DNA of 64,000 nt from NCBI GenBank assembly GCA_964469905.1, contig CAYXZW010000001.1, positions 134,783 through 198,782 on the forward strand, written 5' to 3'. The notes under the pieces were generated by a model, which saw only the letters and a list, made by a program, of their open reading frames with translations, did not search any database and had not been told where the DNA came from. Source of the DNA: an uncultured Smithella sp. Its GTDB lineage: Bacteria; Desulfobacterota; Syntrophia; Syntrophales; Smithellaceae. This document shows positions 44,398 to 54,917 of this stretch, piece after piece. The number at the start of each line of letters is the position of its first letter. The first letter of the stretch is position 1. The position numbers and the translations under genes were made by a program.

Positions 44398-46260
44398 ATG
44401 ATTGCCCTACCCGGTTATCAAATCAATCAACTTCTTTATGAGGACAGTACAAGGTTAGTATATCGGGCAACGCGCACTCACGATGATGCGGGCGTCATCA
44501 TCAAGACACTAAGCAAGGAATATCCTTCACCGGTAGATCTGGCAGAATGCAGAAAGGAATATGAAATAACTTCCTCTCTGCAAGGTGAAGGAATTATCCG
44601 GGCTTACGGTCTGGAAAAATTTGATAATCGTCAGGCTTTAATTCTGGAGGATATTGGCGGGGAATCACTGGACAGGCTGCTTGCCGCGCGCCAACTTAAT
44701 CTGCAGGAAGCACTGACACTGGCCATAAAAATTGCAGACATCATCGCGTTGATTCACGAACAGAGAGTAATTCATAGGGATATAAATCCATCAAATATTA
44801 TTTATAATCCGGAGACCGGCCAGGTCCGTATATTTGATTTCAGTCTTTCCACTAAACTATCCAGGGAAAATGTAGAAATCAGCAATCCCGATATGCTGGA
44901 AGGCACATTAGCATATATTTCTCCCGAACAAACAGGACGGATGAACAGGGCCGTTGATTACCGCACTGACATTTATTCTTTCGGTGTGACTTTGTATATG
45001 ATGCTGACAGGTTCTTTGCCTTTTACAGCGAATGATCCGATGGAGCTTATTCATGCCCATATTGCCAGACAACCGCGAGTGCCTCAGGAAATAAATCCAA
45101 TAATCCCGCCTGTTCTTACAAATGTTGTTTTAAAGCTGCTGTCCAAGATGGCCGAAGACCGTTACCAGAGCGCGTCCGGACTTAAATACGATCTGATGAA
45201 TTGCCAGGAACAATTAAACACTGCGGGTACGATAGCGTCATTTGAATTAGGCAGACATGATTTTTCCGACAGATTGCAGATATCCCAAAAACTTTATGGC
45301 CGACAAGCCCAGATAGAAATCTTACTTAAATCATTCGATTCTGTTTGTGACGGTAAGACAGAGTTGCTGCTTGTATCAGGTTATTCCGGTATCGGCAAGA
45401 CGGCGCTCATCAATGAGATCCACAAAAGGATTTCCGGCAAACAGAGTTATTTTATATCAGGCAAGTTCGATCAATATAAACGCGACCTGCCCTATTCCGC
45501 GCTCACTCAGGCGCTGGTTGATTTAATGAGACAGTTGCTGTCCGAGAAAGACGAAACCCTGGAGTTATGGCAGGCCGGTTTCCTGGGTGCATTAGGTACG
45601 AATGCCCGGCTGATGGTAGATATTGTGCCCAATCTGGAGCTGATTATTGGCCGGCAACCGGACGTTCCGGAACTTTCTGCTGAAGAAAGCAAAAATCGTT
45701 TTAATATTGTCTTTCATAATTTTATTAATGTTATTGCCACACGTGACCATCCCCTTGTTATATTTATTGATGACCTGCAATGGGCGGATTCCGCCACACT
45801 GAAACTTTTGGAAATGCTGCTCAGGAATCCGGCAGCGGGACATTTACTTTTTATCGGCGCCTATCGGAATAACGAAGTCACAGACATTCACCCACTGATG
45901 CTGACGGTGGAAGAAATCAGACAATCCGGCGCTACGGTCAACCCGATAGTCCTGAACCCGCTCACCACGGAATATATAGAACAACTGATTGGAGAGACGC
46001 TGAACTGCGATCGGGAAAAGGCACAACCGCTTGCCCTGCTTATTTTCAAAAAAACCGGTGGCAATCCATTCTTTATTAATGAATTCCTGAAGAAGCTTTA
46101 CCGGGATGAAATGATTCTTTTTGATCAAAAACAAGAGGGCTGGATATGGGATGCAAATAGCATTCAACAGATCGATATAACTGATAATGTGGTTTCGTTA
46201 ATAACTGAAAAGATAAATAAACTCCCTTCAAAAGTTCAAAGCACCCTCATGATCGCTTAG
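44398..46260 (+). CDS. N-terminal part of a giant multi-kinase: Ser/Thr protein kinase domain plus AAA_16-type ATPase, ending at an in-frame TAG
   Basis: Kinase motifs are VIIK, HRDINPSNII, DFS and SPEQTGR. P-loop is GYSGIGKTAL and Walker B is FIDDLQWAD. The ORF ends at TAG 46258-46260 but continues in the same frame (see next feature). Confidence 0.85.
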   Translation: MIALPGYQINQLLYEDSTRLVYRATRTHDDAGVIIKTLSKEYPSPVDLAECRKEYEITSSLQGEGIIRAYGLEKFDNRQALILEDIGGESLDRLLAARQLNLQEALTLAIKIADIIALIHEQRVIHRDINPSNIIYNPETGQVRIFDFSLSTKLSRENVEISNPDMLEGTLAYISPEQTGRMNRAVDYRTDIYSFGVTLYMMLTGSLPFTANDPMELIHAHIARQPRVPQEINPIIPPVLTNVVLKLLSKMAEDRYQSASGLKYDLMNCQEQLNTAGTIASFELGRHDFSDRLQISQKLYGRQAQIEILLKSFDSVCDGKTELLLVSGYSGIGKTALINEIHKRISGKQSYFISGKFDQYKRDLPYSALTQALVDLMRQLLSEKDETLELWQAGFLGALGTNARLMVDIVPNLELIIGRQPDVPELSAEESKNRFNIVFHNFINVIATRDHPLVIFIDDLQWADSATLKLLEMLLRNPAAGHLLFIGAYRNNEVTDIHPLMLTVEEIRQSGATVNPIVLNPLTTEYIEQLIGETLNCDREKAQPLALLIFKKTGGNPFFINEFLKKLYRDEMILFDQKQEGWIWDANSIQQIDITDNVVSLITEKINKLPSKVQSTLMIA

Positions 46261-51561
<5,301 letters not shown>

Positions 51562-51576: not shown

Positions 51577-52230
51577 ATGCCGGAGCAGATTCAGAAACAG
51601 ACAGTTCTTATTGTCGATGATGATATTGTTAATATTAAAATACTTGGTTCAGCACTAATATCAGATTATGAAATCCTTTTTGCACTGAGTGCACAAGAAG
51701 GAATTAATAGTGCAATTTCCAATCAACCCGACATTATTCTACTTGACATTTTGATGCCGTTTATGGATGGATATGAGGCCTGCCGAAAATTAAAAGATGA
51801 TGAACGAACCAGGGACATCCCGGTAATCTTCATCACGGCAAAAGACTCTGAAGAAGATGAAGCGAAGGGATTTGATGCCGGCGCTGTTGATTATATTACT
51901 AAACCATTCAGTCTGATTGTTGCAAAGGCAAGGATAAGGACACATATCTCTCTTAATCTTACGAGTCAGGAGTTGGCAAGTAAGAATGTCATGCTTGCCG
52001 CCCGCTTAGAGGAACTGGAGAATGCCCGAAAAGAGATTAAGGACATTGAATCAATTATTCCTATCTGCTCCTATTGCAAAAAGATCCGCGACGATAAAAA
52101 TTACTGGGAACAACTGGAAAGCTATATGTATAAATATTCAGAAATGAAGTTCAGCCACAGCATCTGTCCGGATTGTTATGAAATGCACATCATACCTCAA
52201 TTGTTGCCTGATCGTGTCAAAGGGAAATGA
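51577..52230 (+). CDS. Response regulator: REC, coiled-coil linker, Cys-rich C-terminal domain (CxxC...HxxCxxC), paralog 1
   Basis: 217 aa with an intact REC (IVDDD, LLDILMP, FITAK, ITKPF). The C-terminus is IIPICSYCKKIRDDKNYWEQLESYMYKYSEMKFSHSICPDCYE. GGGGGTG RBS lies 15 nt after the giant kinase stop. Confidence 0.85.
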   Translation: MPEQIQKQTVLIVDDDIVNIKILGSALISDYEILFALSAQEGINSAISNQPDIILLDILMPFMDGYEACRKLKDDERTRDIPVIFITAKDSEEDEAKGFDAGAVDYITKPFSLIVAKARIRTHISLNLTSQELASKNVMLAARLEELENARKEIKDIESIIPICSYCKKIRDDKNYWEQLESYMYKYSEMKFSHSICPDCYEMHIIPQLLPDRVKGK

Positions 52231-52292
52231 ATTAAAACATATGGAATGATTTTAATAACATCGGCTCAAGAAGCAATAAGGAATGACAAACT

Positions 52293-52946
52293 ATGGTTGA
52301 GGATATCCCAACACAAGTGATTCTAATAATAGATGATGCCATTGCCGACATTAAGATTCTTGGATCCACATTACAGTCTAATTATAAAATACTATTTGCC
52401 CTCAATGCCCAGGAAGGAATTACCAGTGCAATTGCCAATCAACCCGATCTTATCCTTCTGGACATAATTATGCCGGGGATGGACGGATATGAGGCCTGCC
52501 GTCAATTACAAACCGATGAAAGAACCAGACACATCCCGATCATCTTTATTACCGCCAAAACCGCTGAGGAAGATGAGATAAAGGGCTTTGCCCTGGGAGC
52601 GTTGGACTATATAACCAAGCCTTTTAACCCCATTATTGTAAAAGCTCGAGTGCGTACTCATATATCGCTCAGACTTGCCACCCTTGATTTGGCAAGAAAG
52701 AATATCATGCTTGCCGCTCGTGTAGAAGAACTGGAGAAAGCCAGAAACGAGATCAAGGCCATTGAGTCAATTATTCCTATCTGTTCATATTGCAAAAAGA
52801 TTCGTGACGATAAAAATTACTGGGATCAGTTGGAAAGCTATCTGCGCAGAAATACGGAACTTAAGTTCAGTCATAGCGTTTGTCCGAGTTGTTACGAACA
52901 GCACGTCATACCTCAAATTTCACCTGTTGTTGGTAAAGAAAAGTAG
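52293..52946 (+). CDS. Response regulator: REC, coiled-coil linker, Cys-rich C-terminal domain, paralog 2
   Basis: 217 aa, colinear with paralog 1 over its full length. The C-terminus is IIPICSYCKKIRDDKNYWDQLESYLRRNTELKFSHSVCPSCYE. AAGGAA RBS is present. Confidence 0.85.
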   Translation: MVEDIPTQVILIIDDAIADIKILGSTLQSNYKILFALNAQEGITSAIANQPDLILLDIIMPGMDGYEACRQLQTDERTRHIPIIFITAKTAEEDEIKGFALGALDYITKPFNPIIVKARVRTHISLRLATLDLARKNIMLAARVEELEKARNEIKAIESIIPICSYCKKIRDDKNYWDQLESYLRRNTELKFSHSVCPSCYEQHVIPQISPVVGKEK

Positions 52947-53006
52947 CAGGTTCAATAATCATGAGTATTGACGGAGACATCACCATTAAACACCTATCAT
53001 ATTCCC

Positions 53007-53036
53007 TTGACAAGGCCTGATTTACCTTCCTATACT
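53007..53036 (+). promoter_or_regulatory. Near-consensus sigma70-type promoter inside the track ORF's 5' extension
   Basis: TTGACA (53007-53012), an 18-nt spacer, then TATACT (53031-53036), 37 nt upstream of ATG 53073. Confidence 0.4.
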
Positions 53037-53072
53037 CCAAAAGTACGAAATCGATTGGAGAAGTTACGGCAA

Positions 53073-54917
53073 ATGACTCATAAACACTCTCTTACGAAAT
53101 ATGTCAGCGAGCACTTGGTAGTAGGCGACGGCGCAATGGCCAGTTGGCTTTACCAGAAAGGCATACCCATTGGCTTGTGCTGCGAGGAATTGAACATCTC
53201 CCGACCGGATATCATCCGGGATACCCATCGGGAATACTACGAAGCCGGTGCCCGCCTGATTGAGACCAATACCTTCGGGGCCAACCGTGACGCCCTGTCC
53301 CGTCACGGCCTGGAAGACAGTGTTTACCGCATTAACTGGAAAGCGGCGAATCTGGCCCGGGAAGCGGTAGGCGCAGATGCCTGGGTGATGGGCAGTATGA
53401 CAGCCATCAGCACCGGAAGAGTCCGTCATGAACTTCTGCCGGGACACCGCGAAATGTTCATTGAACAGGCTGAAGCATTGCTCGCCGGGGGTGTCGATGG
53501 TTTAATTCTGGAAACTTTCCTCGATCTGGCAGAACTTCTCCTTGCCCTGACTACCCTGCGCTCCCTCACGAATTTACCGATCATTGCTCAACTGGCTTGT
53601 ATGGAGGTGGGAAAAACCCGTGACGGCTATACAGTCACAGAATCTTTTCGGCAGCTCCTGGATTCCGGGGCAGATATTCTGGGTATCAACTGCCGTCTTG
53701 GTCCCGGCGAAATATTGCGCACAATGGAACAGACTTACGTTCCGGAAGGTACGATTCTTTCCGTTTTTCCCAACGCCGGTCGCCTGGGTATAATAGAAGG
53801 GGAATTCGGCTATACTTCATCGCCCGAATACTTCGCCGATCGCGCTTTGAGTTTCCGCGATCAAGGGGTCAGGATCATCGGCGGCTGTTGCGGCACAACA
53901 CCAGACCATATCCGCGCCGTAGCCTCCACTTTGAGGGAATTGCCTCCCCTGCCCCGTATTAATCCTGAGCATATTCAGGAGCCAGCGCAGATATCAATAA
54001 TGACTGATGTCAGTGTAAGAGGAAAAACAGACACAATTCTGGATAAGGTAAAACGACGTTCAACGGTGCTGGTCGAATTCGACCCGCCGAAAGACCTCGA
54101 CATCGAACAATACATGATTGGTGCAGCCTCTCTGCAGGATGCGGGGGCTGATGCCATCACCATGGCTGATAACTCACTGGCCCAGACGAGGATGAGTAAT
54201 CTGGCCCTGGGAGCCATCGTAAAAATGCGCCTCGGAATCGATCCCCTCGTCCACATCGCCTGCCGGGACCGCAACTTAATTGGCCAGCAGTCCCATCTCA
54301 TGGGACTGCATGCTCTGGGCATTCATAATATCCTTGTTGTCACGGGTGACCCCGCTCGCATCGGCGATCTCCCCGGCGCCAGTTCGGTCTTTGACGTCTC
54401 GTCCTTTGACCTTATCCGCATGGTTAAACAGCTCAATTGCGGCATCTCTTTCTCCGGTCAGTCTCTCCGGGAACATGGACGTTTCGTAGTCGGGGCTGCC
54501 TTCAATCCTCACGTTAACAATTTGGATAATGCTTTAAAACGACTGGAAAGAAAAATAGAGGCGGGTGCAGATTTTATTTTGACTCAACCTGTTTACGATC
54601 AGGCGACAATCGAGATGCTTGCCACAAAGACCCAAAATCTTCCCGTACCAATCTTCATTGGCATTATGCCCATCACCAGCGCCCGCAACGCCGTATTTCT
54701 CCACAACGAAGTGCCTGGAATCAGACTCTCGGAAGAATCTTTGAAACGAATGGCCCAATATCCTGTAGCCGGCCCTGAAGCCAGGAGAGCCGGTCTGGAA
54801 ATTGCCAGGGAACTGGTGGATGTTGCCCGGGTTTACTTCCCGGGACTTTATTTGATGACCCCCTTTGCCTATTACGATATGACTGCAGAGTTGACCAGGT
54901 ACGCCAAGAATAAGTAA
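53073..54917 (+). CDS. Bifunctional homocysteine S-methyltransferase / 5,10-methylenetetrahydrofolate reductase (YitJ-like fusion)
   Basis: The N-terminal Hcy-binding domain has [19 protein letters not shown] and the Zn site [11 protein letters not shown]. The C-terminal MTHFR domain has [21 protein letters not shown] and LTQPVYD. I prefer ATG 53073 over TTG 52968 because of the internal promoter. Confidence 0.85.

Follow-up and report, generated by a model that had tools for sequence, protein, structure and literature searches.

Several described systems share part of the design considered here. In WspR and PleD, which join a receiver (REC), a stalk and a GGDEF domain, receiver helix α5 is prolonged into a long stalk and output is set by stalk-mediated dimer geometry; in the ANTAR regulators AmiR and EutV, a tiny conserved output is borne at the tip of a coiled coil, is activated by dimerisation and is used behind several types of sensor. 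Linkers quantised in heptads are a hallmark of dimeric signalling-helix effectors, including histidine kinases, GGDEF cyclases and class III cyclases, and the S-helix and the heptad-periodic linkers of PAS kinases are well known and have been exploited in the engineered kinase YF1. Small metal-organised domains such as the DksA/TraR finger, the N-terminal zinc-binding domain of ClpX and the ZAS domain bind RNA polymerase, adaptors and sigma factors; they are often found beside coiled coils or as dimers, and some double as redox switches. The closest published idea that was found is HalOD2 of halobacterial response regulators (Galperin et al. 2018, PMC5847659), which is only predicted to be a zinc finger; it likewise follows a receiver and a helical segment, which is HalX-like, and carries its two CxxC motifs, 20-25 residues apart, at the C-terminus. 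Here, we describe two tandem response regulators, RR1 and RR2, encoded in a 64,000-nucleotide stretch of an uncultured Smithella sp. genome (assembly GCA_964469905.1, contig CAYXZW010000001.1, positions 134,783 to 198,782 of the forward strand; hereafter the window, to which all coordinates refer). Each ends in a small module with four cysteines (the Cys4 module), and the main new result is that the sensor-to-module linker varies in length by whole heptads. The module is an output variant inside the known two-component and one-component frameworks, and is probably the sign of a major signalling output yet to be characterised. The features of the pair are as follows.

51577..52230, + strand: RR1, a 217-residue response regulator with receiver, coiled-coil stalk and Cys4 module.
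51604..51918, + strand: RR1 receiver (residues 10-114; PF00072, 86.2 bits against a cut-off of 30.2).
51913..52050, + strand: RR1 signalling helix (residues 113-158), a 46-residue helix predicted by AlphaFold2 (AF2).
52051..52203, + strand: RR1 Cys4 module (residues 159-209), with C164, C167, W177, H194, C197 and C200.
52231..52292, + strand: RR1-RR2 spacer of 62 nucleotides, with an AAGGAA ribosome-binding-like site ahead of the RR2 start codon.
52293..52946, + strand: RR2, a 217-residue paralogue with architecture and linker class (55) as in RR1.
52320..52649, + strand: RR2 receiver (residues 10-119; PF00072, 84.9 bits).
52629..52766, + strand: RR2 signalling helix (residues 113-158), colinear with that of RR1, with a Lys-to-Cys distance of 55.
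52767..52919, + strand: RR2 Cys4 module (residues 159-209).

The full-length AF2 model of RR1 was found to place α5 and the stalk in a single helix (residues 113-158) that leads directly into the module, with a predicted local distance difference test score (pLDDT) of 93-96 up to residue 150. An earlier note on this DNA had proposed a separate linker of about 45 residues after the receiver; in the model, this segment is instead the prolongation of α5. When the distance from the receiver lysine to the first cysteine of the module was determined for 115 REC-type members of the family, it was found to equal 34+7n residues in 112, with distance classes of 34 (29 members), 41 (7), 48 (66), 55 (8) and 69 (1); RR1 and RR2 both fall at 55 (34+21). 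PAS-type members displayed a similar periodicity, the distance from the PAS DIT to the first cysteine being a multiple of seven (28, 35, 42 or 49) in all 11 examined, and the module begins right after the last heptad (LxGLLPIC). This strict quantisation argues that the helix is a coiled coil and that selection acts on its register with respect to sensor and module alike. On the same grounds, the module is read as an effector under the control of a dimeric coiled coil of locked register, an arrangement known from WspR-type cyclases, kinases and ANTAR regulators. The discrete linker classes (34+7n from the receiver Lys, 7n from the PAS DIT) resemble those of histidine-kinase and PAS signalling helices; unlike in those kinases, the effector here has no DHp/CA core and is without a phosphoacceptor or ATP-binding domain.

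The two regulators were confirmed to be paralogues encoded by colinear open reading frames (ORFs) of 217 codons, 62 nucleotides apart, with products that are 71% identical (84% positives) and aligned with a sole gap of two residues at the extreme C-terminus. Response_reg (PF00072) was the sole Pfam family above threshold (E-value 2e-24 for RR1 and 6e-24 for RR2), and the residues D14-D15, D57 in LLDI[L/I]MP, T87 and K109 are kept in both, in agreement with the intact receivers reported earlier. Judged by sequence, both proteins are phospho-accepting response regulators of the canonical kind, every testable feature of such proteins being present. Both exact proteins were found in public assemblies; PKN76469.1, the representative of the 90%-identity cluster of RR1, and PKN76468.1, a member of that of RR2, belong to Deltaproteobacteria bacterium HGW-Deltaproteobacteria-10, which has an equivalent tandem pair. 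The source annotations 'RsbU' and 'RpfG' carried by homologues reflect receiver and linker similarity only, and were rejected as the identity of the regulators since the similarity is confined to these parts.

Among known structures, WspR (3bre and 3i5a) was the best match to the receiver and stalk, with query-normalised template modelling (TM) scores of 0.62-0.63 over about 155 columns, and PleD was also matched. The NCBIfam PleD model PRK09581 was matched by RR1 and RR2 over positions 3/4-140/145 of 457 only (E-value 7e-36 and 3e-35), far below its cut-off. Where these proteins have a GGDEF domain, RR1 and RR2 have the module of about 50 residues instead, and no enzymatic activity is predicted. 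EutV (6ww6 and 6wsh) was among the fold matches of the full-length RR1 model, with a poor superposition (root mean square deviation of about 11 Å); the ANTAR domain is a metal-free three-helix bundle, whereas the module is predicted to be β-α-α-β-α with four cysteines and is often carried by membrane sensors.

The C-terminal block reads ..ESIIPICSYCKKIRDDKNYW(E/D)QLESY..(M/L)KFSHS(I/V)CP(D/S)CYE.. in RR1/RR2 and forms a module of about 50 residues with the pattern CxxC-x29-CxxC. Within its 26-residue core, SIIPICSYCKKIRDDKNYW(E/D)QLESY, the paralogues differ at one conservative residue, and over the whole module (residues 158-203) they are 78% identical, as expected from the near-invariant Cys-rich block that the earlier note had quoted. 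At the DNA level, 52051-52130 and 52767-52846 differ at 10 of 80 nucleotides, with the 7 differences in the core comprising 6 synonymous changes and the one E/D exchange. Nei-Gojobori analysis of the module gave a synonymous divergence (dS) of 1.23 and a nonsynonymous divergence (dN) of 0.127 (ratio ω 0.10), so that the purifying selection read earlier from the mainly synonymous differences was upheld. The synonymous sites of the receiver were found to be saturated between RR1 and RR2, which indicates that the duplication is old and that both copies have been kept by selection. The nucleotide identity of the paralogues peaks at 83-88% across the junction of stalk and module, compared with 58-72% in most of the receiver, and the synonymous divergence at 52051-52130/52767-52846 lies below that of the receiver; this peak could owe something to constraint at the codon level or to a partial gene conversion long ago.

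Modelled alone on a 61-sequence alignment, the module was predicted by AF2 to have a β-α-α-β-α topology (pLDDT 85; predicted TM score 0.61), in which both CxxC motifs fall where a strand passes into a helix and the histidine is placed in a β-strand. In the comparison with zinc ribbons and treble clefs, two CxxC knuckles that could supply four metal ligands are present in the sequence; the zinc-ribbon-like fold suggested earlier was not borne out, given the predicted topology and the lack of a ribbon or treble-clef match by Foldseek. Metal binding by the four cysteines is plausible from their pattern. The set of four cysteines plus one histidine put forward in the earlier note held for the cysteines, all four of which are retained in 264 of 267 homologues, but not for the histidine, which is probably no obligate ligand. 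A role for this residue as fifth obligate ligand or as HisKA-like phospho-acceptor was rejected because its conservation reaches 88% only and the model puts it in a β-strand.

Searches for a known relative of the module were performed at the levels of sequence, profile and fold. No model of Pfam-A (2025 copy), NCBIfam 20.0 or PADLOC covers it, and the scans of these three collections returned sub-threshold CxxC noise alone (Rua1_C at E-value 0.006-0.02, zf-C4pol and L32p); in PADLOC, the full-length RR1 and RR2 gave weak matches to the receiver region only. PDB chains searched with a profile of 61 module sequences yielded no match. The best of the PDB candidates, the zinc knuckle of ribosomal protein L36 (PICEYCKVIRR), extends over 12 residues at an E-value of 0.27, which is not significant, and homology was rejected. 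Foldseek, the sensitivity of which is limited for small domains, found nothing for the module model in the PDB (best E-value 2.1) or BFVD (best E-value 0.96), with query-normalised TM scores of at most 0.47; thioredoxin-like matches at E-values of about 1 or higher were scattered and were treated as noise. The earlier view that no curated domain family covers the module was thus supported by empty searches of Pfam, NCBIfam, PADLOC and PDB sequences and folds, and no characterised domain of defined activity was matched.

Individual candidate families were likewise found to be distinct. RR1 and RR2 have no Pfam match to ANTAR or GGDEF, and the topology of ANTAR also differs from that of the module. 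There was no Pfam match to zf-HC2 (ZAS), with its HxxxCxxC motif compared with HxxCxxC here, or to zf-dskA_traR at an E-value of 1 or below, the spacing being 29 and not 17. More generally, DksA and ClpX have spacings of 17-19, and for these domains and ZAS there is no profile match and the predicted topology differs. HalOD2, by its published description, is confined to a few halobacteria and has a spacing of 20-25, compared with a pan-bacterial distribution and an invariant 29 here. No description of the module was found in the literature searched, although one may exist in literature or databases beyond those searched. The module lies outside every family tested and is not demonstrably a zinc ribbon or a treble clef.

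The module profile was found to match 23,700 representative clusters (50% identity) at an E-value of 1e-3 or below, of which 18,958 were retained at 1e-10 or below, and at least 593 module loci were confirmed when a single genome of each GTDB species was scanned. Organism names were taken from 80 retrieved loci, which include (i) Acidobacteriota, Verrucomicrobiota/Opitutae, Planctomycetota, Bacteroidota, Chloroflexota and Nitrospirota; and (ii) Cloacimonadota, Myxococcota, Desulfobacterota, Ignavibacteria, Marinimicrobia and several candidate phyla. The family is pan-bacterial, with more than 10 phyla represented, and its hosts include strict anaerobes and aerobes. The earlier note had recognised the motif as a recurring C-terminal feature of REC and PAS proteins in Desulfobacterota and spirochaetes; its recurrence behind REC and PAS was reproduced, but a restriction to these two groups was not, many kinds of sensor and more than 10 phyla being involved and no spirochaetes being seen among the 80 loci. 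The phage collection contained no module and the plasmids one partial match only, and an association with plasmids or phages was rejected on this basis.

Conservation was assessed in 267 family proteins, mostly the best-scoring, with 301 unique module cores. The CxxC-x29-CxxC pattern is exact in 264 of the 267 proteins, the exceptions being two single Cys substitutions and one N-terminal truncation. In the cores, W22 is present in 100%, P7, K13, R16, D18 and Y28 in more than 90% each and H39 in 88%; the knuckle CKKIR is held at 95% for K13, 72% for K14 and 96% for R16, and the charged residues K13, K14, R16, D17, D18 and E26 are 71-96% conserved. Altogether, conservation across phyla and architectures exceeds 80% at about 30 of 45 module positions, and the module has a median net charge of -2 and an isoelectric point (pI) of 5.75. 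The modules of RR1 and RR2 carry the hallmarks of the family, including the four cysteines, the 29-residue spacer, P7, R16, D18, W22 and Y28.

Domain architectures were tallied for 100 representatives of at least 150 residues, drawn from the best-scoring 150 of the 23,700 clusters. The domain ahead of the module was REC in 28, MASE6 in 19 and PAS in about 13, with GAF, HAMP, CHASE3, PocR, Reg_prop/Y_Y_Y propellers, TPR, MHYT, HisKA_7TM and Tll0287 among the others. The module generally ends about 10-50 residues from the C-terminus; exceptions are two-copy proteins, one REC-module-PilZ protein and a few longer tails. This sample matched 40 Pfam families, and no HisKA, HATPase, GGDEF/EAL or helix-turn-helix (HTH) family is among the 25 that occur most often. 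Since the module is C-terminal and is accompanied by no kinase, cyclase or HTH family in the sample, it appears to occupy the output or transmitter position, including in membrane-embedded sensors. The source annotations of its carriers are generic ('response regulator', 'PAS domain S-box protein'). Two modules per protein were found in about 40 of the top 150 representatives (among P0128-P0164). Individual architectures include a module-MASE6-module protein (P0155) and a 1405-residue Reg_prop/Y_Y_Y propeller sensor with two module copies (P0131); in two-module membrane sensors, the module replaces the entire kinase-receiver-HTH output of Bacteroidetes-type hybrid systems. The sole fusion to a domain of known ligand among the proteins scanned is P0185 (343 residues, Logan assembly), with the order REC-Cys4 module-PilZ.

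ORFs of 63-114 residues with only a coil and a module were found in ENA long-read contigs (L085 5586-6192, L086 5640-6255, L087 5134-5783 and L088 1598-2477). Because each follows or overlaps a receiver-only ORF in these contigs, they are best read as full-length regulators split by frameshifts, and many short database entries of the family are probably frameshift fragments. Free-standing module minigenes as a path to partners were rejected for this reason.

The presence of two regulator genes was considered in relation to similar pairs elsewhere. Three unrelated metagenomic proteins (P0126, P0133 and P0137) are REC-module-REC-module fusions, the halves of which each share about 40% identity with RR1, and Opitutaceae bacterium EW11 (L046 5347-6910) carries a further, independent tandem pair of adjacent genes. 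The linker class was found to be equal within the pair in 8 of 8 pairs, though the class varies by lineage: 55/55 in RR1/RR2 and in their HGW-10 cluster relatives P0122/P0124, 34/34 at three loci, and 48/48, 41/41 and 41/41 in the fusions. These fusions and equal classes fit, and are suggestive of, an RR1-RR2 heterodimer with both stalks in one in-register coiled coil.

The genes surrounding the pair are listed below.

44398..46260, + strand: Pkinase and AAA_16 (STAND-type ATPase) ORF (Pfam Pkinase E-value 4e-35, AAA_16 E-value 3e-45), ending with an in-frame TAG.
46291..51561, + strand: hybrid histidine kinase of 1756 residues, with the Pfam architecture GAF-PAS-HisKA-HATPase_c-REC-REC-Hpt.
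52968-54917: homocysteine S-methyltransferase/methylenetetrahydrofolate reductase (MTHFR) fusion ORF, downstream of RR2; gene callers start it at ATG 53073.

The stop codon of the hybrid kinase lies 15 nucleotides upstream of the RR1 start codon. From this adjacency, the kinase is the probable phosphodonor, via its Hpt domain, for RR1 and RR2, which are likely to be the terminal acceptors of a multistep phosphorelay; homologues of the two regulators are likewise placed in two-component clusters. One in-frame TAG (46258-46260) parts the Pkinase-AAA_16 ORF from the hybrid-kinase ORF, the frame of which is identical, and the first possible start of the latter is TTG 46291, with no obvious ribosome-binding site ahead of it. 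The region 44398-51561 may comprise two genes, or one gene of about 2,390 codons for a Ser/Thr-kinase/STAND/hybrid-histidine-kinase protein with a nonsense mutation, a sequencing error or read-through. A terminator-like site was looked for in the 52231..52292 spacer (+ strand) and none was found. Ahead of the methyltransferase/MTHFR gene, a σ70-type promoter-like site was identified at 53007-53036 (TTGACA-18-TATACT, 11 of 12 consensus positions), and the transcription unit of the regulator pair therefore probably ends at 52946. The methyltransferase/MTHFR gene was not conserved among the neighbours of the 80 loci and, for this reason, is probably unrelated.

Neighbour clusters at the 80 loci were also considered as sources of a partner for the module and were rejected, as they consisted of receiver and kinase genes, Opitutaceae-specific synteny, an antisense-ORF artefact and an HDOD-like gene. 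The last, which encodes a protein of about 300 residues that is HDOD-like by eye, lies 0.2-5 kb from the regulator gene in 7 of the 80 loci and in several phyla (L006 3065-4036, L020 7419-8348, L035 6372-7265, L056 3370-4260, L068, L072 and L084). It is the sole recurrent neighbour across phyla besides kinases and regulators, and its placement is too loose and too rare for a partner.

The best explanation of these results, held tentatively and at slightly less than an even chance, is that a phospho-controlled dimeric stalk sets the geometry of paired metal-stabilised modules that bind an invariant macromolecule. The hybrid kinase would pass phosphate via Hpt to Asp57 of RR1 and RR2, and phosphorylation would alter the pairing or rotation of the parallel dimeric coiled coil formed by two stalks, the dimer being a homodimer or, given the natural fusions, perhaps an RR1-RR2 heterodimer. 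The change in the stalk would set the mutual geometry of the two modules, most likely Zn-Cys4, at its tip, and the paired modules would act as the effector by binding and releasing one invariant macromolecule, most likely a protein, such that many different sensors could converge on a common target. The modules would be unlikely to serve as operator-specific DNA-binding domains. An invariant macromolecular partner is favoured because so large a share of the module is conserved, because it is net acidic and often membrane-tethered, and because no target gene is conserved nearby; the strong purifying selection between RR1 and RR2 was also counted for an invariant target.

A number of points weigh against this explanation: (i) the module pLDDT drops to 54-68 in the full-length RR1 model; (ii) clustering of the neighbours of the 80 loci returned signalling genes and lineage-specific synteny alone, and no partner; (iii) informative fusions, if rare, may have been missed outside the best-scoring 150 of 23,700 clusters; (iv) the equal linker classes within pairs could just be inherited from duplication; (v) the conserved KKxR knuckle and the aromatic residues would be suited to nucleic-acid binding as well; and (vi) ANTAR is a small, highly conserved, coiled-coil-borne output able to bind a conserved RNA motif. 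A broader form of the proposal, which we doubt rather more than we believe, would make the module a pan-bacterial transmitter class, in which thousands of sensors present module pairs via a register-locked coiled coil to an invariant hub or to each other, in an output network running alongside phosphotransfer, cyclic-nucleotide turnover and DNA binding; the tandem pair would then be a heterodimeric end node of a phosphorelay.

Points (v) and (vi) bear most directly on the alternative that the module is a nucleic-acid-binding finger, in which dimerised modules would bind a conserved RNA element (in antitermination or translation control, as for ANTAR) or a DNA site. The basic knuckle CKKIR is near-invariant, the aromatics Y21, W22, Y28 and Y46 are conserved, and a short local likeness, the non-significant match noted above, links the knuckle to the rRNA-binding L36. 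The design of receiver, coiled coil and small output is common to EutV and other ANTAR regulators, the superposition being poor, and DNA or RNA binding has been predicted for the conceptually similar archaeal HalOD2 (PMC5847659). The overall acidity of the module runs counter to such a role, as does its frequent occurrence on membrane-embedded sensors (MASE6, Reg_prop/Y_Y_Y, MHYT and HisKA_7TM). Moreover, the near-identity of its surface across paralogues and phyla excludes paralogue-specific operators, no similarity to any such finger was found in Pfam or the PDB, and no downstream target gene was conserved at the 80 loci. We regard this alternative as unlikely, though the strongest of those considered.

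It is improbable that the module is a second input, that is, a thiol, metal or redox switch (labile Zn-Cys4, rubredoxin-like Fe or Fe-S) that gates the protein while the receiver contacts partners, as in single-domain regulators. DksA, RsrA and Hsp33 are precedents for Zn-Cys4 redox switches; both CxxC motifs of the module are predicted at strand-to-helix junctions, as in thiol-disulfide oxidoreductases, and the second knuckle reads CPxC, as is typical in rubredoxins. Weak, non-significant matches in sequence and fold were enriched in thioredoxin, glutaredoxin and DsbC. However, this arrangement would leave the PAS-, GAF-, MASE6- and propeller-module proteins of the sample with no other candidate output, heptad-locked coupling to an upstream sensor is typical of effectors, and the module occurs in strict anaerobes and aerobes alike.

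The possibility that the module is a structural cap appears slim. Such a metal clasp would staple the end of the coiled coil and stabilise dimers or oligomers, possibly between different module proteins, with no target of its own; the commonness of two-copy proteins and fusions, the position of the module directly after the last heptad and the lack of a partner gene at the 80 loci are all consistent with it. Its conservation, on the other hand, exceeds the needs of a fold and a metal site, including at the exposed residues K13, K14, R16, D17, D18 and E26; a plain dimerisation cap needs no register-locked linker, and the sensor-module proteins would be left without an output. Finally, binding of a small molecule (e.g., a nucleotide second messenger) or catalysis by the module itself is very improbable, for although extreme cross-phylum conservation fits an invariant ligand, P0185 has the module between REC and the cyclic-di-GMP-binding PilZ, and the receiver and stalk are nearest to regulators of cyclic-di-GMP networks (PleD, WspR and RpfG-type annotations), a metal-organised domain as small as about 50 residues offers scant space for a pocket, carries no known nucleotide-binding motif and has no similarity to any enzyme in Pfam, NCBIfam, PDB or Foldseek searches.

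The Cys4 module bears on how bacterial signalling proteins are classified. Censuses of bacterial signal transduction sort proteins by output domain, and a module of about 23,700 clusters is without a Pfam, NCBIfam or PADLOC model; a sizeable share of the sensors in Acidobacteriota, Verrucomicrobiota, Planctomycetota, Desulfobacterota and other environmental phyla have no known output at present. The interest of the module lies in the size and breadth of this unannotated family and in a question that is directly testable through the heptad rule and the Cys4 site. The heptad rule provides an experimental handle, as variants with ±n residues in the linker should switch or invert the output, and a small module of fixed register could serve as a compact part for engineered sensors. 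Finding the partner or ligand of the module would give all of the sensors that carry it an output at once.

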